Position numbers and translations under genes: made by a program. From positions 1-54,550 of the IMG/VR virus record IMGVR_UViG_3300023184_000028: 54,550 nucleotides of DNA; one strand, given 5' to 3'. Position 1 is the stretch's first letter. The number at the start of each line of letters is the position of its first letter. Origin of the DNA: a virus. Taxonomy: Duplodnaviria > Heunggongvirae > Uroviricota > Caudoviricetes. Positions 549 to 27,469 of the stretch are shown one piece after another. The notes beneath the pieces were generated by a model. The model searched no databases. It had not been told where the DNA came from and was given only the letters and a program-made list of their open reading frames with translations.

Positions 549-1091
549 ATGTTTGACAAATTAATAGAATTTATAATACAGTTTATGGAAGATTTTCTTC
601 CTTTTAAGATTGTGAATCAGTGGGAAAAAGGAGTTTATTTACGATTTGGTAAATATCAAAAAGTTGTTGAGCCTGGTTTAATCTTAAAAATACCTTTTGC
701 CGATAAAGTTTGGACTCATGAGGTAATTACTCAAACGGTTCATCTCCAACCACAAACATTAACCACTTTGGATGAGAAATCCATTGTATTGAAATCAATT
801 ATCCGGTATCACGTAAATGATGTTCAAAAGTTTTTATTGAATGTTATGCATGCGTCCGATGTTTTGGTAGATACAACCCAAGGTATTATTAGAGAAAAAG
901 TTGAGTATACCAATTGGGAAGATTTGGATGATGTTTGTGGTGATTTAGAGACGAATGTACAGGGTGTTGTTGATGATTGGGGTATTACCATTGAAAGAAT
1001 AACTTTAACCGATTTGGGGATTGTAAATACCTATCGTATCATGTCCGATACCAAACAAACAACAAATATATTACCAAATGAAAACTGCTGA
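549..1091 (+). CDS. SPFH/band 7 (stomatin/prohibitin-like) protein
   Basis: V..WEKGV.LRFGK...V.EPGL..KIPF.D, Q.LTT.D and WGITIERI.LTD motifs. Confidence 0.9.
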   Translation: MFDKLIEFIIQFMEDFLPFKIVNQWEKGVYLRFGKYQKVVEPGLILKIPFADKVWTHEVITQTVHLQPQTLTTLDEKSIVLKSIIRYHVNDVQKFLLNVMHASDVLVDTTQGIIREKVEYTNWEDLDDVCGDLETNVQGVVDDWGITIERITLTDLGIVNTYRIMSDTKQTTNILPNENC

Positions 1092-1305
1092 GGATTATAT
1101 AGTTAAATTCTTTAAGGTGTTTATCATCCCGCTGGTCATTACCAATGGGATGATTTACCTTATTGGTAGTTTTATTGCCATGGATTTTGATTATAATAAT
1201 TGGTGGGCATTTAACTCAACATTTGGAAGAGTTTTATTATCTTTGCTTGAATTAATGATATTAGTTAACATCCCCAAATGGTGGGAACAATACAACACAA
1301 AATGA
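1078..1305 (+). CDS. Small membrane protein with two hydrophobic segments
   Basis: ORF overlapping both neighbours in operon fashion; two TM-like stretches. Confidence 0.6.
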   Translation: MKTAEDYIVKFFKVFIIPLVITNGMIYLIGSFIAMDFDYNNWWAFNSTFGRVLLSLLELMILVNIPKWWEQYNTK

Positions 1306-1784
1306 ATATATTTTTATTAGATTGGGACGTTAAGAAATGTGCTGAGTATCATTGTGATAAACACGTTGTTAAAATGATTTTAGAGACCGCACAACTACTT
1401 TGTGGTGTTCACCATACAACCAACTCAACCAACCAAGTTCCTTACAAATTATCCCATAAAAATCATCCTTGCTCCATATGGGCGAGAGAGTCAATAACAA
1501 ATTATTTGTATTTGTGTGAGTTAGGTTTAGAATTATGTGAGGAATATACCTACAGGTACGGTAAAAGACATAAATCTCAGGATGTTATTGAGTGGTGTGT
1601 AACAAATAAAGCACAAATTTGTGACAAAGGACTTACAAAACCCGCACTTGCAATGCCTGACGAATATAAGGTTGGGGATGTGATACAATCGTATAGGAAC
1701 TATTATAATGGCGCCAAGTCAGATTTCGCAGTTTGGAAAAATAGAGAAGTTCCTGAATGGTTTTACAAAAAAGTCAATAATTAG
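1302..1784 (+). CDS. Pyrimidine-dimer DNA glycosylase / DenV-like family protein
   Basis: MNIFLLD...HCDKHVVKMILETAQLL, HKNHPCSIW, EYTYRYGKRH, AMPDEYK, YRNYY motifs; start moved to MNIF at 1302. Confidence 0.8.
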   Translation: MNIFLLDWDVKKCAEYHCDKHVVKMILETAQLLCGVHHTTNSTNQVPYKLSHKNHPCSIWARESITNYLYLCELGLELCEEYTYRYGKRHKSQDVIEWCVTNKAQICDKGLTKPALAMPDEYKVGDVIQSYRNYYNGAKSDFAVWKNREVPEWFYKKVNN

Positions 1785-4273: not shown

Positions 4274-4312
4274 AAAAAAATCCCATCAAATTTTGTGGAG
4301 ATGATGGGATTT
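4274..4312 (-). terminator. Terminator downstream of tmRNA
   Basis: 11-bp stem AAATCCCATCA/TGATGGGATTT with a T-run on the minus strand. Confidence 0.65.
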
Positions 4313-4317
4313 AGTCG

Positions 4318-4713
4318 TGGAGGTGTCGGCGTCGAAGCCGAGTCTTGTTCGCCATAAAAATAAATGACTACATGCTTATTTCAACATTGATTCTCAATGT
4401 TCCGAAATATCAGGTTTGATATATGTGAGAAACCCACCTGCAAACAACTTGGTCTCAGAGTTATTTTAAACGAGCTCTGACCTGTGACCCGTATAACGGA
4501 CTTCTGTTCCTAGGTTATATGTCCTAACCGACCCGAAGGTATCATAACAATTAAGCTACAGATACAGTCTCGTCTTGTCTAATAAGACCAGCAAGAGACA
4601 TTTTGTTCAAAACGTTGCCGTTTGGATTTTACCACCGTTAATTAAAGTCGTAGATGATATCCGACTGCATGCCATTTACCCCTATAAACGCCAATCAATT
4701 CCATGTCACCCCC
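4318..4713 (-). ncRNA. ssrA: tmRNA (transfer-messenger RNA), ~396 nt
   Basis: Minus strand starts GGGGGTGACATGGAATTGA and ends GAC-TCGGC-TTCGAC-GCCGA-CACCTCC-A; 7-bp acceptor stem with G3:U wobble and discriminator A; internal tag ORF at 4619-4551. Confidence 0.93.
4551..4619 (-). other. tmRNA tag reading frame GNVLNKMSLAGLIRQDETVSVA*
   Basis: CAAAC-GGC resume context, open for 22 codons to TAA, ends in Ala. Confidence 0.75.
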
Positions 4714-4733
4714 ATAATTTCAAATAACTTAAA

Positions 4734-4764
4734 CAAAGATAAGAATAAATATTTAGTTTCCAAA
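4734..4764 (-). promoter_or_regulatory. Bacteroidota housekeeping-sigma promoter for tmRNA
   Basis: TTTG (4764-4761) - 19 nt - TATCTTTG (4741-4734), an exact match to the -33/-7 consensus TTTG-N19-21-TAnnTTTG. Confidence 0.75.
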
Positions 4765-4795
4765 CAAAAATGGTATTTATATTAAAACACAGTTT

Positions 4796-5824
4796 ATGAG
4801 AATTATCCGAGAAGCGAAAGAAGATTGGTTGTATATGCAACTTCATATGTTTAATCAGGGAGCACTTAGTGCGGTTCATATTAAAGACGATATGATTTTT
4901 GACCTTAGGGACAATGGTATTATGGTATTAAAATTTGAGGATGATTCAGAATATTTTAAGTTATTTGGTTTTGATGAATATAAAGTCACTGATTTATCTA
5001 GAATTTTTTCATACTATGGTGGTATAGAATGGTTTGATAGTTATACCGCCGCTGATGATTGGGCAGAAGGTTATTTGTATAATTATTTTAATGACGAGAA
5101 TAAAGAAATGTTTGAGGAGATTAAACAATATCTATCACCTGAATTAGATTTGGGGGACAGTAATCAATTGACTCAGTTTTGTAAATTTATGGACGAAACA
5201 TTTCATAATAGAATTGATACGATTATTGGTGATTATACGGGTGAAATGGATAACGCCATTGAGAACACCATGAAGGAAGCGGTTAGACATGACTTATGTA
5301 ATATTTTTATGGGAGATGGGATTTATCAGGCAGGTGATAGTTGTTTTTACAAATATTACACGACTGTAGATACATTAATTAAAATATATGATAGGTTTGA
5401 TGATAAATCATCAGACATTTATGAAATACTAAAAAAATTAGGTAAAGATAAAGGAATTGAGGATAATACCTACAGTGATTATTATGAGTACAATTACCAA
5501 GATAAGTTTGACGACGCCAGTTTTAACAGAACCGTAACATGGAATTTAGAAAAAATTAAAGATGAGTTATTAGAGTCCGATAAATTTAAAGACATTGAGG
5601 AGTATAAAAAAATTAGAGATACGTTAACAAAATACAAATTTAAGTCCAACGTTTGGTATGATTTACCCAAAGATAAAAATATTATGTTTAAAATTCATGG
5701 TGTTAATCCAGAAACAAATGAGATTATTTTTGAATATAAGAAAAAAATGACTCAAGATTTCAAAAAAGGCAGTTTATCGTTGGAAAGGTTTAATTTGTTT
5801 TTATACCATCCAGAATTATTTTAA
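4796..5824 (+). CDS. Hypothetical acidic protein
   Basis: 342-aa ORF preceded by TATTTAT; no family recognised. Confidence 0.75.
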   Translation: MRIIREAKEDWLYMQLHMFNQGALSAVHIKDDMIFDLRDNGIMVLKFEDDSEYFKLFGFDEYKVTDLSRIFSYYGGIEWFDSYTAADDWAEGYLYNYFNDENKEMFEEIKQYLSPELDLGDSNQLTQFCKFMDETFHNRIDTIIGDYTGEMDNAIENTMKEAVRHDLCNIFMGDGIYQAGDSCFYKYYTTVDTLIKIYDRFDDKSSDIYEILKKLGKDKGIEDNTYSDYYEYNYQDKFDDASFNRTVTWNLEKIKDELLESDKFKDIEEYKKIRDTLTKYKFKSNVWYDLPKDKNIMFKIHGVNPETNEIIFEYKKKMTQDFKKGSLSLERFNLFLYHPELF

Positions 5825-5865
5825 TTTGTCAAATTAATTTCTTACCTTTATAAAAAATATATAAA

Positions 5866-6696
5866 ATGTCAAGAAATTTAGAGTTATTAAAAGAAATTTT
5901 ATCAGTTCCCACCGTTACATACGATGAAGAAAGAATGGTTCAGTATATTTCAGATTGGCTACATGAGAATAATATTGAACATTATGTTGACGAGTACCTT
6001 AATGTGTATGCTGTCAAACAAACCGGTAAATTACCTAAAGATTTTGTCTTCCCTTGTGTAATTGCTCACACGGACACCGTCCACAGAATAGATACAATTA
6101 ATGTTGTTGAGGAAATGAAACCTAACGCTCATGGTGAACTCAAATTATCCTTGAAAGCTTATAATGATGAAGGTAAACCCACAGGAATTGGTGGTGATGA
6201 CAAATGTGGTGTGTTTGCCTGTTTGGAATTGTTAAAAGAACTACCTAATCTTAAAGCTGCGTTTTTTGTTTCTGAGGAAACAGGATGTCATGGTTCAAGA
6301 TTGGCGGATTCCAACTTCTTCTCAAATGTGGGGTACGCAATTCAGTTTGACGCACCCGAGAATTGGATGATTACCGAAACATGTTTTGGTGCCAAGTTAT
6401 TTGACAGAGATAGTGAGTTCTTTCAGAAATGCGACATGGTGTTAAATGAAAGTATGAATGATAAACGCCAATATATGACACATCCTTATACTGATGTTTA
6501 TGCTCTAAAAACTAAATTTGATTTTTCTTGTATTAATTTCTCAATCGGATATTATGACTATCATACAAAGAACGAATACGTTGTTGTTGAGGATACTTTT
6601 AACGGTATTGAGATGGGTAAAAAGATGATTGAGTTGTTGGGATATAAGAAATACGCAAAAACGTTAGAACGGTCTGAAAACTTCAGATATTGGTAA
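5866..6696 (+). CDS. M20/M28/M42-clan metallopeptidase
   Basis: AHTDTV, GIGGDDKCG, SEETG and GYYDYHT metal-binding motifs. Confidence 0.85.
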   Translation: MSRNLELLKEILSVPTVTYDEERMVQYISDWLHENNIEHYVDEYLNVYAVKQTGKLPKDFVFPCVIAHTDTVHRIDTINVVEEMKPNAHGELKLSLKAYNDEGKPTGIGGDDKCGVFACLELLKELPNLKAAFFVSEETGCHGSRLADSNFFSNVGYAIQFDAPENWMITETCFGAKLFDRDSEFFQKCDMVLNESMNDKRQYMTHPYTDVYALKTKFDFSCINFSIGYYDYHTKNEYVVVEDTFNGIEMGKKMIELLGYKKYAKTLERSENFRYW

Positions 6697-6698
6697 TA

Positions 6699-6729
6699 AA
6701 AAAAAGGAAGTTTTTAACTTCCTTTTTTT
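6699..6729. terminator. Bidirectional terminator
   Basis: AAAAAAAGGAAGTT-TTT-AACTTCCTTTTTTT between convergent genes. Confidence 0.75.
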
Positions 6730-8735
6730 GTTTTAGACACTAGCAATGTTTCACCGTCATCTGTTTTCAAGGTATATTTCATGTCCTCTTTAATATTACC
6801 TTTTAGAACTTCTTCTGAGATAAAATCTTCAACTTTATCCTGAATTGCTCTCTTTAATGGTCTTGCTCCATACATTTCATCAAATCCTACTTTGGATATC
6901 ATTTTTTGGATTGAGTCATCAAATTTTATGAAGTATTTCATACCATCCAATCTTTTCTTTAATTTATCCAATTCAATATTGACAATTTTATCAACATCTT
7001 CTTGTTTCAGGGAATTAAAGACAACAATATCATCAATACGATTTAAGAATTCCGGAGCAAAAAACTTTTTAAGTTCTTTATGTAATGTTTCTTTTCTTAA
7101 CTCTTCATTTGCAAATACATTATTGGCATTTGTAAAACCAATACCCATTCCAAAATCTTGCATTTTTTTAACACCAAGATTTGAGGTCATAATAATAATA
7201 CAATTCTTAAAATTAATTTTACGCCCCAACCCATCTGTCATATGTCCGTCATCTAACATTTGAAGTAATGTTGAGAAGATATCTTTATTTGCCTTTTCAA
7301 TTTCATCAAATAAAATTACGGAGTATGGTTTATTTTTAACTTGTTCTGTCAATTGTCCACCTTCATCATAACCAACATACCCTGGAGGAGCGCCAACCAA
7401 ACGAGATGCCGTATGTTTTTCTTGGTATTCGGACATATCAACTCTGATAAGATTATCCTCACTTCCAAAAACTTCTTTTGCCAACTGTTTTGCCAAGTAG
7501 GTTTTACCAACACCTGTGGAACCTAAGAAGATAAATGAACCAATAGGTCTTCCTGGGTCTTTAATACCCAAACGATTTCTTTTAATTGATTTTGCAATAC
7601 GACTAACGGCGTTTTCTTGACCAATAACTTTTTCATTGAGGGCTTTATCTAAATTAATCAAAGCTTTCGCACCATCCAAACTCAATTTATTTACAGGTAT
7701 TTTAGTCATATTTGATACAACTTCATAAATCAAATCAAGAGGTACTTCTCTTTTTTTAGTGGTTACATCATTCTCAAATTTCTTTTTCTCATCGTCAAGT
7801 TTCATTAGAATTTTTCGTTCTTTATCTCTTAACTCTGCCGCTTCCTCGTATTTTTGTTTTTTAACAACATCAATTTTTTGTTGCTTGATTTCTTGAGCTT
7901 TACCTTTTAATTCTTCAATTATTTCGGGTAATTTCATATCCACTTGACATCTTGCACCAACTTCGTCTAAAATATCAATTGCTTTATCTGGGAATTCTCT
8001 ATCAGTGATATATCTGTCAGCCAAATTAACACATGCAAGTAAACATTCGTCAGTAAATGAAACTTTATGGAAATTCTCGTATTTGTCTCTGATGTTTCTA
8101 AGGATATCTAACGTTTCTTCTTTTGTTGAACCATCAACAATTACTTTTTGGAATCTTCTCTCCAAGGCACCGTCTTTCTCAAAGTTTTTACGGTATTCAT
8201 CAAGGGTTGTTGCACCGATACATTGTATTTCTCCACGAGCAAGAGCGGGCTTAAATATATTTGAAGCATCTAAGGAACCCGAAGAATTACCTGCACCTAC
8301 GATGGTGTGGATTTCATCAATGAATATAATAATTTCAGGATTTGCCTGAAGTTCTTCAATAATGACTTTCATTCTTTCTTCAAACTGTCCTCTATATTTT
8401 GTCCCAGCAACTACAGATGTCATATCCAAAGATAATACTCGTTTATCTGCGAGATTTCTAGGACAATCACCATCATATATCTTCATTGCCAAACCTTCAG
8501 CAATTGCGGTCTTACCACAACCAGGCTCACCAATAATAATGGGATTATTCTTTTTTCTACGGGATAGAATCTGAGCAATACGAAGTATTTCTTTTTCTCT
8601 ACCAATAACAGGGTCAAGTTTACCTTCTTCAGCTAACTTAATTAGGTCTCTACTGAAATTATCTAATGCGGGAGTTTTTGAGTCATACGACTTTCTTGAG
8701 TCCTTCTGATTCTCATTATCCATTGATTCTATCAT
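6714..8735 (-). CDS. clpC: ClpC-type AAA+ unfoldase lacking the N-terminal Clp repeat domain
   Basis: [15 protein letters not shown] and FIDEIH (D1); UVR-like [12 protein letters not shown]; GSTGVGKT and LFDEIEK (D2); IGF ClpP-docking loop; GARPL. Confidence 0.92.
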
Positions 8736-8787
8736 AATTTTATAATTTACTTAAAATATACAAAAAACATTCTAAAAATACAACGTT

Positions 8788-8880
8788 TGACATGATGTCA
8801 TGATTAAATAGTTATCATATGACATATTGACATAATATATGTAATTTTAACAATATTTTTCCAATGGCACAAAATTAGTT
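8788..8880 (+). promoter_or_regulatory. Candidate sigma54 promoter with upstream TGACA repeats
   Basis: TGACATGATGTCA palindrome (8788-8800), TGACATATTGACA (8820-8832), TGGCACAAAATTAGT (from 8865; GG-N10-GT). Confidence 0.5.
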
Positions 8881-8925
8881 GATTTGTTGGAAAATAAAAA
8901 ATAAATTTATTAAAAAAACAAAATT

Positions 8926-9315
8926 ATGTACAATTCAAGATTTGACAAATTAATGGACGGGATTTTTGAAGGTTTTGCATACCCAACCTACTCAACACAT
9001 TACAAGAGTATGGAAAACACGCAACCTTACGAAATAAACTACACAAAAGATGGTGCATACCTAATCTTTGAAGTTCCTGGATTTAATAAATCTAACCTGA
9101 AAGTTGAGATGGAAGACGGTACTCTATATGTAGATGGTACAAGAACCTACAAACGGGATGGTGAAGATATTAATAAATCCGTAAAACAAACTTTTAAGAT
9201 TGGTAGAGAATATGACCCATCAAATATTGAAGCGACAATAGAGGACGGAATTTTGAGTGTGTTCGTACACAGCTACAAAAAATCAGAAAAAAAGAAACGT
9301 ATCAGTTTGTTGTAA
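8926..9315 (+). CDS. Small heat-shock protein Hsp20 (alpha-crystallin domain)
   Basis: EVPGF.K..LKV..EDG.L.V.G and IEATIEDGILSV motifs. Confidence 0.9.
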   Translation: MYNSRFDKLMDGIFEGFAYPTYSTHYKSMENTQPYEINYTKDGAYLIFEVPGFNKSNLKVEMEDGTLYVDGTRTYKRDGEDINKSVKQTFKIGREYDPSNIEATIEDGILSVFVHSYKKSEKKKRISLL

Positions 9316-10583: not shown

Positions 10584-10826
10584 ATGGCGGTAAAAAAAGA
10601 AACAATACAAGGAACTAAAATAATCAATGAAATTGATTCAAGTAATTTGGTAAAAACCGAATACGATGTTGAAACTAAAAAATTAGTTGCCGAATTTAAG
10701 AGCGGAGCGAAATACGAATACGACGAAGTCCCACACAATATCTACACTAAATTTAGAATGGCCGAATCTCAAGGTAAATTCTTTAATGCTGAAATCTCAA
10801 AAACATATAAATACAAAAAAGTCTGA
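10584..10826 (+). CDS. KTSC domain protein
   Basis: SSNL...YD...K.L..EFKSG..YEY..VP..Y..F..AESQGKFFN..I pattern. Confidence 0.9.
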   Translation: MAVKKETIQGTKIINEIDSSNLVKTEYDVETKKLVAEFKSGAKYEYDEVPHNIYTKFRMAESQGKFFNAEISKTYKYKKV

Positions 10827-10838
10827 TATTTATACTTA

Positions 10839-11597
10839 ATGGATAAAAGTACGGATATATTAAAAAGCTTTTCAGTTAGGCAAGAGTTGAATCCTAAAAT
10901 TTGGATAGACCCAAAAGGTAAAGAAACAAAAATAAAATCAGACATTAGAGAATCTCTATTAGAGATTGCATATCAATTTATTGATTTTCTAAAAGTAGAG
11001 GTTTTTGTTGAAGATATAGTAATGACAGGTTCATTATGTAATTATAATTGGTCGGAATATTCTGATGTTGATTTACACTTAATGATTGACTACTCTCAAT
11101 TTCCTGAAGAACAAGTTGAAGTTTATAAAGAGTTATTAAACATTAAAAAACTTTTATTTAATAATAACCACGACATTAAAATAAAAAATTATGATGTTGA
11201 ATTGTATTGTCAAGATTCAACCGAATCTCATTTTAGTAGTGGAATGTATTCAATTTTATTTGACGAGTGGTTAGAAAAACCAAAAAAAGAAACCGTTAAT
11301 ATAGACAAATTATCAATTAAAAATAAAGCCAAAGAGTGGATGAAAAATATTGATAATGTCATGAAACACGCATCACATGAAGATTTAGATGAAGCAAAAA
11401 ATATTTTAGATAAGTTTAAAGAGAAACTTAAAAAATATAGAACATCAGGATTAGAAAAAAATGGTGAGTATTCTAATGAAAATTTGGTGTTCAAATTTTT
11501 AAGAAGAAATGGTTATATTGAAAAATTATATGATTTTGAGAATAAATTGATGGATAAATCACTTTCATTGTCAGAACACCATATAACAAATGCATAA
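10839..11597 (+). CDS. Pol-beta superfamily nucleotidyltransferase
   Basis: MTGS...SDVDLHL (GS..DxD) plus third acidic strand YDVELY; C-terminal ENLVFKFLRRNG. Confidence 0.8.
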   Translation: MDKSTDILKSFSVRQELNPKIWIDPKGKETKIKSDIRESLLEIAYQFIDFLKVEVFVEDIVMTGSLCNYNWSEYSDVDLHLMIDYSQFPEEQVEVYKELLNIKKLLFNNNHDIKIKNYDVELYCQDSTESHFSSGMYSILFDEWLEKPKKETVNIDKLSIKNKAKEWMKNIDNVMKHASHEDLDEAKNILDKFKEKLKKYRTSGLEKNGEYSNENLVFKFLRRNGYIEKLYDFENKLMDKSLSLSEHHITNA

Positions 11598-11838: not shown

Positions 11839-13218
11839 ATGGCAGATTTACAACCACTTGGAAGTGAAAAATTAACAGGGATGGATAAAATAAATAGAAT
11901 TCTTGAAATCTCTAGATTTAAAGAAAATTCACCAAATTCTGTTAATGAAACATCAAGAAATGAATATAACTTAACTTTAGCCGATGGTAATGAATATCAG
12001 ATTGTTAGAGAGAAATCAGGATATATAATTAAAAAAACAATATCGGAAGGAACAAGTGATTATATTGAACCTATGAAAAATAGGAAATATTACCCGTCAT
12101 ATTCTCAAGCATTAAAAAGATTAAATTTGATGGCTAAAGAAACTAACACTCTTTATGAAAATAAAGAAGGTACTTCACTATTTTCAGAACAAAAGAAATT
12201 TGTTTTGAAAAATCCAAACGCTGAAAAAAAAAGTCCTGATTTAGGTTCGGATATTGAAAACGTACCTCCTCCAGCACCTGCACCCGCACCCGCAGAACCA
12301 ATGGGTGCAACACCTCCACCTTCCGATATGGGCGGAGCAGATATGCCACCACCACCTCCATCAGGAGAAGAAGGAATGGGAGATGAAACAGCTCCACTTC
12401 CTGACGACATGGGAGGAGAAGGAATGGATGATATGGGTGATGAACACGAAGAAGGTGGTGTAACATTCAAAAGTATACAAAAACTTACGGGGAAATTAGG
12501 TCAAAAATTAAGAACATTAAATTCTGACGAAGAAAATAAAATGTCTTCAAAAGATGTTAAATATGTTATTAATTCTATTTTATCTGCACTAGATATAAAC
12601 TCTTTGGATGACAATGATAAAGAAGAAATTATTTCTAAATTTGACGAAGTAGGTGATGAAGATATGGGTGATGAAGATATGGATGGTGAAGATATGCCGG
12701 AACCTCCTCCATCAGATGATGACATGGGACAAGAAGAAGATATGGATGGTGAAATGAAAGAAGAAGATAACTTATGGAGTGATTTTGCCAAAACAGGATT
12801 AGTTAATACTATGTCAGATATGGCTGTAAATACAATGTCAGACCATGCAAAAATGGGTGAGTTCGGAGAAGAATACGGAGACGACGATAATTCTCATATT
12901 CATAGAATCGCTAATGAATTATTTGTTGAAAATAAAGTTGAAAATATTTTGACAAAATATTTTACACTCACAGAAGGTGAGAAAAAATTTAATGATAAAG
13001 TTAATAAAGAAAGAAAAATAGTTAAAACAATAACTAAAAAAGAAATCACAAAAGAAATTTCACGACTTTCTGAAAATGTTATTCAAGAAATTAGTTCTAG
13101 AAAATTTTTAAAAGAAAACCAAAGTGCTAAATTTGTTGGTAAAACAAATAAAAAGAATTTAGTATTTGAACTTGGAAATAAACAGTATAAAGTTTCAACT
13201 ACGGGAGATATCATATGA
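11839..13218 (+). CDS. Acidic Pro/Gly/Met-rich protein, probable head/core component
   Basis: Low-complexity PPP/DMG tracts; lies upstream of TerL in the late operon. Confidence 0.6.
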   Translation: MADLQPLGSEKLTGMDKINRILEISRFKENSPNSVNETSRNEYNLTLADGNEYQIVREKSGYIIKKTISEGTSDYIEPMKNRKYYPSYSQALKRLNLMAKETNTLYENKEGTSLFSEQKKFVLKNPNAEKKSPDLGSDIENVPPPAPAPAPAEPMGATPPPSDMGGADMPPPPPSGEEGMGDETAPLPDDMGGEGMDDMGDEHEEGGVTFKSIQKLTGKLGQKLRTLNSDEENKMSSKDVKYVINSILSALDINSLDDNDKEEIISKFDEVGDEDMGDEDMDGEDMPEPPPSDDDMGQEEDMDGEMKEEDNLWSDFAKTGLVNTMSDMAVNTMSDHAKMGEFGEEYGDDDNSHIHRIANELFVENKVENILTKYFTLTEGEKKFNDKVNKERKIVKTITKKEITKEISRLSENVIQEISSRKFLKENQSAKFVGKTNKKNLVFELGNKQYKVSTTGDII

Positions 13219-13625
13219 GTTATTTAATTTATGTTAATGGTTTAGGACCAAACTATAAAGGAGATAACATGTATGAATTTATATTTTCCGATGAAATAAA
13301 AAATGTTTGGGATGATACGTGGGACGCGAAGCCCGCTAATGGTTATCCAAAACCACCAAGTTTAGAATTTATAAAGAAAGTCGGAGTATTGAAAGACACG
13401 TCAATTGAGTTTGATTTGATTCAAAATTCCGATTTTTTTAGTTTTACGGATAGTATGGATGATGTGATATCATTGTCTTGGGAAAAAGAAAATGAGGACA
13501 TTGATTTCACAATAACAAAAAGATTAGTATTTAGATTTGGAGAGACTGAAAAGTCAGTTAAAGATAAATTATATGAACGAGATGTCGTTCTTGAGTTTGA
13601 AAAAAAAGTAGTATATGAAAACTAA
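13215..13625 (+). CDS. Hypothetical protein
   Basis: 136-aa ORF coupled to the upstream gene by an ATGA overlap. Confidence 0.7.
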   Translation: MSYLIYVNGLGPNYKGDNMYEFIFSDEIKNVWDDTWDAKPANGYPKPPSLEFIKKVGVLKDTSIEFDLIQNSDFFSFTDSMDDVISLSWEKENEDIDFTITKRLVFRFGETEKSVKDKLYERDVVLEFEKKVVYEN

Positions 13626-19556: not shown

Positions 19557-20261
19557 ATGGAATTTGGAATATTAAAATCAAAAATAGAAAAAAAATTAAC
19601 CGAATCTTATTCAAAGAATAGCTTTAATAAAGAAATTAAGACCTTTAGAGATGTTGTTTTAAAGAACGATGGTATTAGTAGGGCATATCACATATACAAT
19701 GAAATTTCCAAATCTAAAGGATTTGATAAGAAATTTGCTGAGGATTATGTTAACGAGTGCATAGACATTTTCAATAGAATTAAGTTTTCTAAAAAATCTA
19801 TATCATTGTTAGAATCTTGGGTTAGTGGAACTAAATGTGAAAATCAATATAAAGATATTGATACTATCTTTAATAAGAGTACGTTAGTTATTGAGAATAT
19901 TATAGAAAGTAAAAATAAGATTATTTCAAATTTAACAACTAAAGAATCCACTACTGAACTAATTAATATTCCTTTAGAAAAAATTGTTGAGGTCGCTAAC
20001 GAAAACTTAAAAAATTATTTAACTGACTTAAATGAATCTGAACTAAATCAGGTTAAAAAATATTTAACATTACCTAAAAATGAAATATCTAAAAGATATG
20101 AAGTTTTAAGTGAACTTATTATTGAAAAATTGGAGAATATGTTAAATGAATCTGATACAGAAACTAAAGAAAGAATTACCGAAACAATTTCTAAAATTAA
20201 AAATGATACTATAGATTCAATATCACTGATAAAATTAAAAACTCTTAACGAGAACTTGTAA
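19557..20261 (+). CDS. Hypothetical head-module protein
   Basis: 234-aa helical ORF directly after portal, TATTTAT upstream, several LxE|S sites. Confidence 0.7.
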   Translation: MEFGILKSKIEKKLTESYSKNSFNKEIKTFRDVVLKNDGISRAYHIYNEISKSKGFDKKFAEDYVNECIDIFNRIKFSKKSISLLESWVSGTKCENQYKDIDTIFNKSTLVIENIIESKNKIISNLTTKESTTELINIPLEKIVEVANENLKNYLTDLNESELNQVKKYLTLPKNEISKRYEVLSELIIEKLENMLNESDTETKERITETISKIKNDTIDSISLIKLKTLNENL

Positions 20262-20433
20262 TTTTTTGTTGGTAAATAGCCTTTTTCTTTTGGGTTCTTA
20301 ACACTACGGATTTTTTAGTGTATTCTTTTTTTCCTCTTAGGATGTCGTTTTGTTTTGTTTTTATTACCTTATTTTTTAACATTTTAAGTGCCTTATCAAT
20401 TGGCGTTTTGTTATCTAAATTTACTATTATCAT
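20245..20433 (-). CDS. rpsU: Ribosomal protein bS21 (phage-encoded)
   Basis: 62-aa basic protein with IDKALK.LK.K..K...LR.K.EY.K.SV..R....KA.Y bS21 pattern; antisense within the head module. Confidence 0.88.
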   Translation of the reverse strand: MIIVNLDNKTPIDKALKMLKNKVIKTKQNDILRGKKEYTKKSVVLRTQKKKAIYQQKITSSR

Positions 20434-27043: not shown

Positions 27044-27469
27044 ATGAAAAAAATTAAAAACGGTGATACCGTAAATGTAAATTACACTGGAAAATTGGAA
27101 GATGGAACTATTTTTGATTCGTCTTTAATTGAAGGAAGAACTCCATTAAAAGTAACGTTGGGTCAAAATCAATTAATTAAAGGATTTGAAAATGGTTTAA
27201 TTGACATGTTAGAGGGTGACAAAAAAACAATAGAGATTGAACCGACTGAAGCTTATGGCGACCATAATCCTGAAATGATTATTGAAATCCCATCAACTAA
27301 TGTTCCACCCGATGTTCAAGTGGGTCAAATGTTACAAGGGAATTCTCCTCAAGGTCCTGTTAATGTTAAAGTTCTTGAAATTAAAGAAGATGTTGTCGTT
27401 CTTGACGGTAATCATCCTTTAGCTGGAAAAAAATTAATCTTTGACTTGGAAGTCGTTGGAATTGACTAA
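27044..27469 (+). CDS. FKBP-type peptidyl-prolyl isomerase, SlyD-like (insert-in-flap domain, no His-rich tail)
   Basis: GD.V.V.YTG.LEDG..FDSS, LIKGFE.GL, P.EAYG, DGNHPLAGK.L.F. Confidence 0.92.
   Translation: MKKIKNGDTVNVNYTGKLEDGTIFDSSLIEGRTPLKVTLGQNQLIKGFENGLIDMLEGDKKTIEIEPTEAYGDHNPEMIIEIPSTNVPPDVQVGQMLQGNSPQGPVNVKVLEIKEDVVVLDGNHPLAGKKLIFDLEVVGID

Follow-up and report, generated by a model that had tools for sequence, protein, structure and literature searches.

A tmRNA with a long conserved tag beside an N-domain-less ClpC and an M20-type peptidase in a T4-like jumbo phage

The stretch of DNA analysed here (the window) is the first 54.5 kb (54,550 nucleotides) of a 192,370-bp linear IMG/VR virus contig (IMGVR_UViG_3300023184_000028; G000), and the locus under study in it comprises the genes for a one-piece transfer-messenger RNA (tmRNA), a ClpC unfoldase without its N-terminal domain ("headless" in the following), a peptidase of the M20 type and the small heat-shock protein Hsp20 (Table 1). 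An earlier note on this DNA had read these genes as a tag-and-destroy module, in which the phage supplies its own ribosome rescue and a matching unfoldase, borrows ClpP and SmpB from the host and so obtains a partly orthogonal degradation path. As detailed below, its identification of the four genes was correct, while the circuit that it built from them fared less well.

The contig has a G+C content of ~30%, and its completeness of ~64% (CheckV) points to a genome of close to 300 kb. Among its genes are those for a T4-type large terminase (TerL), a T4-type portal, an S77 prohead protease and a gp23-type capsid protein, and we confirmed both the bS21 and the peptidyl-prolyl isomerase (PPIase) that had been noticed elsewhere in the window, the latter, called SlyD-like at the time, being of the FKBP type. 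Freshwater phages of 293–331 kb that encode bS21 and infect Bacteroidetes were described by Chen et al. 2022, and their clade is known to carry chaperones and a Clp protease (PMC9723584). The phage studied here, a T4-like, bS21-encoding jumbo phage of Bacteroidota, matches that clade, and the host of this ~300-kb lake phage probably belongs to the Flavobacteria.

Table 1. Features of the window, in order of position
Feature	Position	Strand	Basis or context
Band-7/SPFH protein	549-1091		variable region beyond the tmRNA
Pyrimidine-dimer DNA glycosylase	1278-1784		variable region beyond the tmRNA
DnaJ-type cysteine-rich protein, 267 aa	2436..3239	-	variable neighbour, outside the conserved block
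Hairpin and T-run, likely terminator	4275..4311	-	read from the sequence, directly 3' of the tmRNA
Phage tmRNA, one-piece SsrA type	4315..4713	-	Rfam RF00023
Tag reading frame	4551..4619	-	resume codon GGC, 22 codons, stop TAA
ORF342, fold without known match	4796..5824	+	between peptidase and tmRNA
Lid-less M20-type (clan MH) metallo-exopeptidase, 276 aa	5866..6696	+	convergent with clpC
N-domain-less ClpC unfoldase, 673 aa	6714..8735	-	Pfam; alignment to B. subtilis ClpC
Hsp20 small heat-shock protein	8926..9315	+	divergent from clpC
KTSC-domain protein (80 aa) and Pol-beta-type nucleotidyltransferase (252 aa)	10584-11597		just upstream of ClpC
bS21	20245-20433	-	confirmed; among head genes
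FKBP-type PPIase	27044-27469	+	confirmed

The tmRNA and its tag

The tmRNA gene scores 69.9 bits against the Rfam model (gathering score 47) and covers model positions 1–374, i.e., its full length. ARAGORN found no tmRNA in the window, the whole contig or the excised region at lowered stringency, likely because the T-arm (window 4326–4341) has a 6-nt loop, TTCGAC, where the canonical loop has 7 nt, and because the 3' end (window 4315–4320) reads CGA in place of an encoded CCA; surveys based on this program can miss such tmRNAs. As the odd T-loop is common to the tmRNA of a relative (L106) that is only ~80% identical overall, it is an inherited trait and not an assembly error, and a host-type tmRNA gene of Flavobacterium is likewise without an encoded CCA. 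The acceptor stem, GGGGGUG/CACCUCC, contains the G3:U70 pair of alanine identity and shows compensatory changes across 30 related phage tmRNAs. The terminator-like hairpin that follows the gene reads ATCCCATCA...TGATGGGAT and then TTTTTTT; a consensus terminator scan has no entry for it, its loop being too long.

Reading resumes at the GGC codon at position 4619 (tmRNA nucleotide 95) and ends at the TAA at 4551–4553, which yields a tag of 22 residues, GNVLNKMSLAGLIRQDETVSVA. An alignment of 31 phage tmRNAs contains a single conserved frame from GGC; in the 31 upstream sequences listed, an A stands at position -4 relative to this codon. The conserved frame is kept in 63 of 65 clade tmRNAs, whose tags, of 21–22 residues in one count and 20–22 in another, have the consensus G-N-[VT]-[LF]-x-K-[ML]-x-x-[LI]-G-L-x-[RK]-E-x-x-V-x-[VA]-A. 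An alternative frame, GCA-ACG-TTT-TGA (ATF and stop), was ruled out, as it is not conserved in relatives. G1, K6, G11 and L12 are invariant while their codons vary (L12 is written as TTA, CTT, TTG or CTA), and Arg, the commonest residue at position 14 (34 of 44 genes), is encoded by AGA or CGT; overall, the third position is the most variable site in the tag codons, and mean pN/pS is 0.58. Because synonymous switches occur at invariant residues, it is the peptide, and not the RNA alone, that is under selection. The C-terminal residue is Ala in 42 of the 44 unique 21-codon tag genes and is preceded by V, T or A. The non-canonical tag of the earlier note is thus real, and a tmRNA that looks functional and carries a private, conserved tag would indeed provide the phage with a ribosome rescue of its own.

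Compared with bacterial trans-translation and its Clp proteases (tmRNA-SmpB; ClpXP/ClpAP, SspB), the phage likewise has a one-piece tmRNA with G3:U70, an A at -4 and a hydrophobic/Ala tag end, and it encodes a ClpP-docking AAA+ unfoldase near the tmRNA. It differs in that this nearby unfoldase is a ClpC without N-domain, in that no SmpB, SspB or ClpX is encoded by the contig, and in the length of its tag, 22 aa where ~10 are usual. The candidate host tag, encoded by a tmRNA in a metagenome-assembled genome (MAG) of Flavobacterium, is GEGNYALAA (9 aa): the phage tag starts with the same kind of resume codon but has over twice its length and differs from it in the body. In a tmRNA database paper the commonest tag length is 10 aa (PMC11915505). 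Judged by its residues, the phage C-terminus (hydrophobic/Ala; VA, AA) is of the type that ClpX and ClpA read; orthogonality to the host ClpXP is an assumption.

The headless ClpC, the peptidase and their inheritance

The phage ClpC has the Pfam architecture AAA, AAA_lid_9, UVR, AAA_2 and ClpB_D2-small; the 25 Pfam matches listed, of 34, do not include Clp_N. It starts ~15 residues before D1, without the N-terminal double Clp_N repeat, and aligns over its full length to residues 155–805 of Bacillus subtilis ClpC (PDB 3j3s), its ClpP-docking loop, GMGIGF, placing IGF opposite the VGF of the B. subtilis protein. The pore loops KYRG and GYVG are present, and a UVR-type short M-domain (Pfam UVR, residues 281–309) aligns to that of B. 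subtilis ClpC. Such a short coiled-coil M-domain with UVR motif distinguishes ClpC from ClpB and ClpA. The protein shares the D1 and D2 rings, both pore-loop motifs, the M-domain and the (V/I)GF loop with the ClpC-ClpP systems of B. subtilis and Staphylococcus aureus and with Bacteroidota ClpC. What is missing relative to cellular ClpC is the N-domain and linker (~170 residues), an absence seen in those loci of the three phage groups described below (A, B and C), and in those three huge phages, for which the ClpC open frame was measured. In the systems studied, the ClpC N-domain is the docking site for the adaptors MecA and McsB, for ClpS and for phospho-arginine.

The closest full-length cellular homologue seen, an 847-aa ClpC of a Flavobacterium MAG, is 57% identical to the phage protein over its residues 175–841 and possesses, besides a VGF loop, 174 extra N-terminal residues with a double Clp_N head. 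The phage ClpCs cluster in a tree with Flavobacterium ClpC, apart from other bacterial ClpCs. On its sequence, then, the phage protein is a ClpC-derived, N-domain-less variant with an IGF loop, as the earlier note had stated. An (I/V/L/M)GF loop is kept in all phage ClpCs checked except that of L139 (ISF), and this retention of the ClpP loop marks ClpC as a protease component and not only as an assembly chaperone.

The neighbouring gene, previously called an M20/M28 peptidase, proved to be of M20 type. Its score with Pfam Peptidase_M20 is marginal (25.8 bits; cut-off 24.6); further support comes from PHROG 4191 'peptidase' (2.9e-34), from matches to PepT-like NCBIfam models, and from seven metal-binding or catalytic residues (H68, D70, D111, E137, E138, D162 and H233) that are invariant in 76 homologues. 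In alignment with peptidase T (PDB 3gb0), the protein covers the two halves of the catalytic domain. With peptidase T and the M20B tripeptidases (PDB 3gb0, 3rza) it has in common the catalytic-domain fold signature and the complete set of di-metal ligands, but not the lid/dimerisation domain: residues 167–220 (~55) stand for ~160 residues of peptidase T, and the whole protein has 276 aa as against ~370–410. These features suggest that it is probably an active exopeptidase.

Hsp20 is well supported (Pfam HSP20, 50.9 bits against a cut-off of 20.8, 1.8e-13; PHROG 432) and contains an alpha-crystallin domain. The protein encoded between peptidase and tmRNA, ORF342, has no match in Pfam, NCBIfam or PHROG. 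Its AlphaFold2 model has a pLDDT of 90, and comparisons of this fold gave only E > 0.2 with Foldseek, a best Z of 5.2, on helical bundles, with VIA, and no usable match in the ESM Atlas. ORF342, which has no counterpart in the PDB, may have a new fold. It is a fast-evolving protein (~28% identity by tblastn; 340–630 aa among relatives) at a fixed position. As a candidate adaptor of known type it was rejected, since neither Foldseek nor VIA revealed a resemblance to any known adaptor. No SspB or ClpS homologue was found in the contig or in four relatives.

At least 598 IMG/VR viral contigs encode relatives of this ClpC. The locus counts given here refer to the best 80 of these (group A), whose ClpCs are 70–86% identical and too short to accommodate an N-domain. 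A ClpC 98% identical to that of the window (P0010) is encoded on a 320-kb contig. Of the 80 loci, 78 encode the peptidase, 76 the KTSC-domain protein, 74 the nucleotidyltransferase (NTase) and 67 ORF342; Hsp20, found in 23, and the DnaJ-type zinc-finger protein, found in three, are not fixed parts of the block. By a profile search, 64 loci have a full tmRNA, in each case on the strand of ClpC and 1.9–5.7 kb past the ClpC stop codon. As the downstream DNA falls short of 6.5 kb in each of the remaining 16, every locus with at least 6.5 kb (64 of 64) carries one. Among 50 whole records, 39 contain a tmRNA by Rfam, including all three complete genomes. Co-inheritance of ClpC, peptidase and tmRNA in the clade is thus supported. 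The synteny anticipated in the earlier note holds for these three genes within the clade; it does not hold for Hsp20 and the zinc finger, nor for the tmRNA in group B.

The conserved order is TerL ... NTase-KTSC-[Hsp20]-ClpC-M20-ORF342-tmRNA, followed by a tRNA island: tRNA arrays, which begin 2.6–10 kb past ClpC, are confined to the tmRNA side and lie mostly on the strand opposite to the tmRNA. The tmRNA is thus located on the border between a conserved protein block and an island of RNA genes and, as the genes from TerL to the tmRNA all belong to a single syntenic block, adjacency alone weighs little. Nor is there any sign that tag and ClpC co-vary beyond their shared ancestry, contrary to what the earlier note had led one to expect: pairwise tag distances correlate with those of ClpC (Spearman 0.42) no better than with those of NTase (0.45) or of the ORF at 13215–13625 (0.46), and the partial correlation after controlling for neighbour genes is 0.10, in a test of low power. 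In the same loci, distances of the tmRNA body correlate with ClpC distances at 0.31 and ClpC distances with NTase distances at 0.80; the tmRNA may be exchanged among related phages more often than the protein genes, or the difference may reflect noise in the RNA alignment.

Headless ClpCs also occur outside group A. In group C, whose ClpCs are 55–60% identical to that of the window, the layout TerL...NTase-KTSC-Hsp20-ClpC is shared and Hsp20 is frequent beside ClpC, whereas the M20 gene is lacking; here the tmRNA, again on the ClpC strand, is only loosely linked, lying 3.5–24 kb downstream, and its tags belong to the same family (e.g., GNVYSQMELMGLVSVDSKVAVA). In a marine sister clade (group B; 51–54% identity), each of the 24 loci has a clpP gene 1.2–2.8 kb downstream of the headless clpC and co-directional with it; of 20 whole records, all encode a ClpP with an intact Ser-His-Asp triad and none, contigs of 110–212 kb included, contains a tmRNA. 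At L149 (9158–13051) and in 23 further group B loci (L208–L230, L267, L280), clpC and clpP have the same orientation and are separated by 1.2 kb, in which a thymidylate-synthase-like gene and a 108-aa ORF are located.

Finally, the 484–642-kb phages of Al-Shayeb et al. encode headless ClpC (the N-domain being absent from the frames measured) and ClpP, neither adjacent to a tmRNA in the three examined, and SmpB in two of the three. The latter two, LR745206.1 and LR756502.1 (L115 and L116; 634 kb and 642 kb), have two or three ClpP copies besides SmpB and the headless ClpC, and no full tmRNA by Rfam; either their tmRNA is too divergent to be detected, or their SmpB works with the host tmRNA. In related phages, tmRNA and ClpC can each exist without the other.

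Phage-encoded tmRNAs are also known from the mycobacteriophage Bxz1 group, Bacillus phage G and the huge phages of Al-Shayeb et al. 2020. Phage tmRNAs have been covered before (PMC7162821, PMC12484599), as have phage ClpA, ClpX, ClpP, ClpS and Hsp20 (PMC7824862); phage G carries ClpX and ClpP in addition (PMC12484599), and huge phages carry tmRNA together with SmpB (PMC7162821). The present tmRNAs differ from other phage tmRNAs in that their tag family is conserved across two diverged groups and that, in group A, they are always linked to a headless ClpC. The paper on the clade does not mention a tmRNA (PMC9723584), and we found no published description of the tag family or of its linkage to the headless ClpC.

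Roles of the locus and rival explanations

As the earlier note had observed for the window, neither SmpB nor ClpP is encoded there, and the same is true of the whole 192-kb contig. This absence proves little, however, because the contig is only ~64% complete and ends 4.3 kb beyond the tmRNA. A ClpP of 225–270 aa with an intact Ser-His-Asp triad is encoded in 18 of 50 related records, 9–37 kb beyond the tmRNA, i.e., in the direction where this contig breaks off, so that borrowing of the host ClpP, as had been suggested, cannot be claimed for this particular phage. For some members of the clade the suggestion stands: the genome of the relative G030, complete at 304 kb, encodes no ClpP, although its ClpC has retained the docking loop, and such phages must use the ClpP of the host. 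SmpB is encoded by one of five relatives searched (G040), and we infer that the phage tmRNA makes use of the host SmpB.

We favour the reading, to which we assign a probability of about 0.55, that the genes make parallel contributions to keeping ribosomes and amino acids available and do not constitute a closed, orthogonal pair of tag and reader; the locus would be that part of a conserved genome block which serves proteolysis and the support of translation. The host alanyl-tRNA synthetase would charge the phage tmRNA by way of its G3:U70 identity pair, and host SmpB and EF-Tu would deliver it to ribosomes stalled on broken mRNAs, which it would free while adding Ala and the 22-residue tag of the phage lineage, with its hydrophobic/Ala C-terminus. 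Separately, the phage ClpC would be a descendant of Bacteroidota ClpC from which the adaptor-docking N-domain was deleted and in which the pore and ClpP loops stayed intact. This combination leads us to propose that it is an unfoldase which works with ClpP outside the control of host adaptors, its partner being the phage ClpP where one is encoded and otherwise that of the host. The lid-less M20 exopeptidase would trim the resulting peptides to amino acids, and Hsp20, where present, would hold unfolded proteins. Tagged fragments would probably be among the substrates of ClpP proteases, namely the host ClpXP and possibly the phage ClpC.

Several points weigh against this view. The 6-nt T-loop might impair the phage tmRNA, although the trait is common to L106. 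B. subtilis ClpC without its N-domain is inactive in the absence of MecA, and constitutive activity of the phage ClpC is therefore an assumption. The tag body, long and strongly conserved (G1, N2, M7 and G11-L12), implies a specific reader, which the favoured reading does not name, and the perfect same-strand linkage of ClpC and tmRNA in two diverged groups could reflect a tighter functional tie.

These last points lead to the circuit of the earlier note, in which the private tag is a degron read by the headless ClpC, perhaps with ORF342 as adaptor, ClpP as protease and the M20 peptidase for recycling, partly orthogonal to the host ClpXP. We regard such a circuit as possible but unlikely. ClpC, M20, ORF342 and tmRNA are linked in every adequately covered locus, and the same-strand order from ClpC to tmRNA is found again in the diverged group C; the tag exceeds twice the length of the host tag and is under amino-acid selection, the ClpP loop is kept throughout, and ORF342, confidently folded and of unknown function, sits exactly between the parts. 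There are also precedents: tags of the ssrA type can be taken up directly by double-ring Clp ATPases, direct degradation of ssrA-tagged proteins is known for both ClpA and mycobacterial ClpC1, and in Mycoplasma an unusually long ssrA tag has switched its AAA+ reader to Lon, a match in a cellular system that is biochemically shown. By analogy, a headless ClpC that reads the tag is a biochemically reasonable hypothesis, if an unlikely one. On the other side, group B retains headless ClpC and ClpP with no tmRNA in 20 records (contigs up to 212 kb), the huge phages carry ClpC with no adjacent tmRNA, and tag and ClpC do not co-vary in excess of tag and NTase. Furthermore, two opposite-strand genes intervene between clpC and the tmRNA, which are thus not co-transcribed, and the tmRNA borders the tRNA island; the tag ends in a ClpX/ClpA-readable manner, and neither an SspB-like nor a ClpS-like adaptor was found, ORF342 being unlike known adaptors. 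Slightly more doubtful again is a phage-private degradation code, in which the headless ClpC would read the tag directly, ORF342 perhaps serving as an adaptor of a new kind, and the phage, by way of its own ClpP or that of the host and independently of host ClpX and host adaptors, could destroy truncated proteins and recycle their amino acids.

It is improbable, in our view, that the tag is not mainly a degron and that its amphipathic body (N-V-L-x-K-M-x-x-x-G-L-I) serves another purpose, which might be an efficient release and termination on Bacteroidota ribosomes that the phage bS21 has remodelled, targeting to Hsp20, aggregates or the membrane, or sparing the host ClpXP from saturation. Conservation is indeed strongest in the body (G1, K6, G11, L12) and not only at the C-terminus, a length of 21–22 aa is atypical beside the commonest bacterial one, and the phage bS21 and FKBP-type PPIase suggest a wider tinkering with translation. 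However, a C-terminal Ala after V, T or A in 42 of 44 tags is of the classic degron type, and no positive evidence was found for any alternative reader. We consider it least probable of all that the neighbourhood is due to chance, with the tmRNA as the first gene of a tRNA island and ClpC, M20 and Hsp20 as assembly or stress chaperones without a functional link to it. The position of the tRNA arrays, on the tmRNA side only, would fit, as would the facts that the block adjoins the terminase, portal, prohead protease and capsid genes and that gene order is kept over the whole region and not for these genes alone. Yet the tmRNA lies on the clpC strand, opposite to most tRNAs, and the ClpP loop makes ClpC a protease component; moreover, tmRNA tagging and ClpP proteolysis are, to our knowledge, biochemically linked in all bacteria studied.

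What is new is a long-kept tag family, unlike the host tag, that is always linked to a ClpC without its regulatory domain, and it offers a concrete, testable candidate for a virus that rewrites the protein quality-control code of its host. If the tag were read by the phage protease, the two would form an orthogonal degron system of natural origin, with uses in the synthetic biology of Bacteroidota, and would illustrate how giant phages maintain their supply of ribosomes and amino acids in nutrient-poor lakes. If it is not, the block is still a well-defined marker of a very abundant freshwater phage lineage.

Flanking genes and hints at the host

The sole tRNA gene of the 192-kb contig, a tRNA-Met at 191320–191396, lies at its far end, outside the window, whereas relatives have arrays of up to 12 tRNAs just past the tmRNA (12 in L022, 11 in L044). 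This suggests that a tRNA island, and perhaps clpP, falls into the unassembled gap between the contig ends.

The conserved PK2 word of the tmRNA, AACCTAGGAACAGAAGTC, was matched in only two GTDB contigs. One of these, 7.4 kb long, belongs to a Flavobacterium MAG and carries a phage-type tmRNA, which is a weak hint at the host. The same MAG contains two tmRNAs (L201 3185–3587; L203 1501–1899), one of host type (GEGNYALAA) and one of phage type (tag GNVYKNMEIAGLLATSNVAVA); the latter is either a binned phage fragment or a host hint.

On the other side of ClpC, the KTSC-domain protein and the NTase show the same degree of conservation as ClpC across two diverged phage groups. The NTase belongs to PHROG 36119, of unknown function, and weakly matches poly(A)-polymerase-like palm domains; a role in the addition of RNA 3' ends, e.g., to the CCA-less tmRNA, is conceivable.

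The adjacent DnaJ-type zinc finger of the earlier note is borne out only in part. The protein contains six tandem CxxCxGxG repeats, as seen by eye, but scores below the Pfam threshold for DnaJ_CXXCXGXG (21.5; cut-off 32.7) and has no J-domain by Pfam, so that it is not a member of the DnaJ family; it resembles instead the stand-alone cysteine-rich domains of BSD2/DnaJ type.

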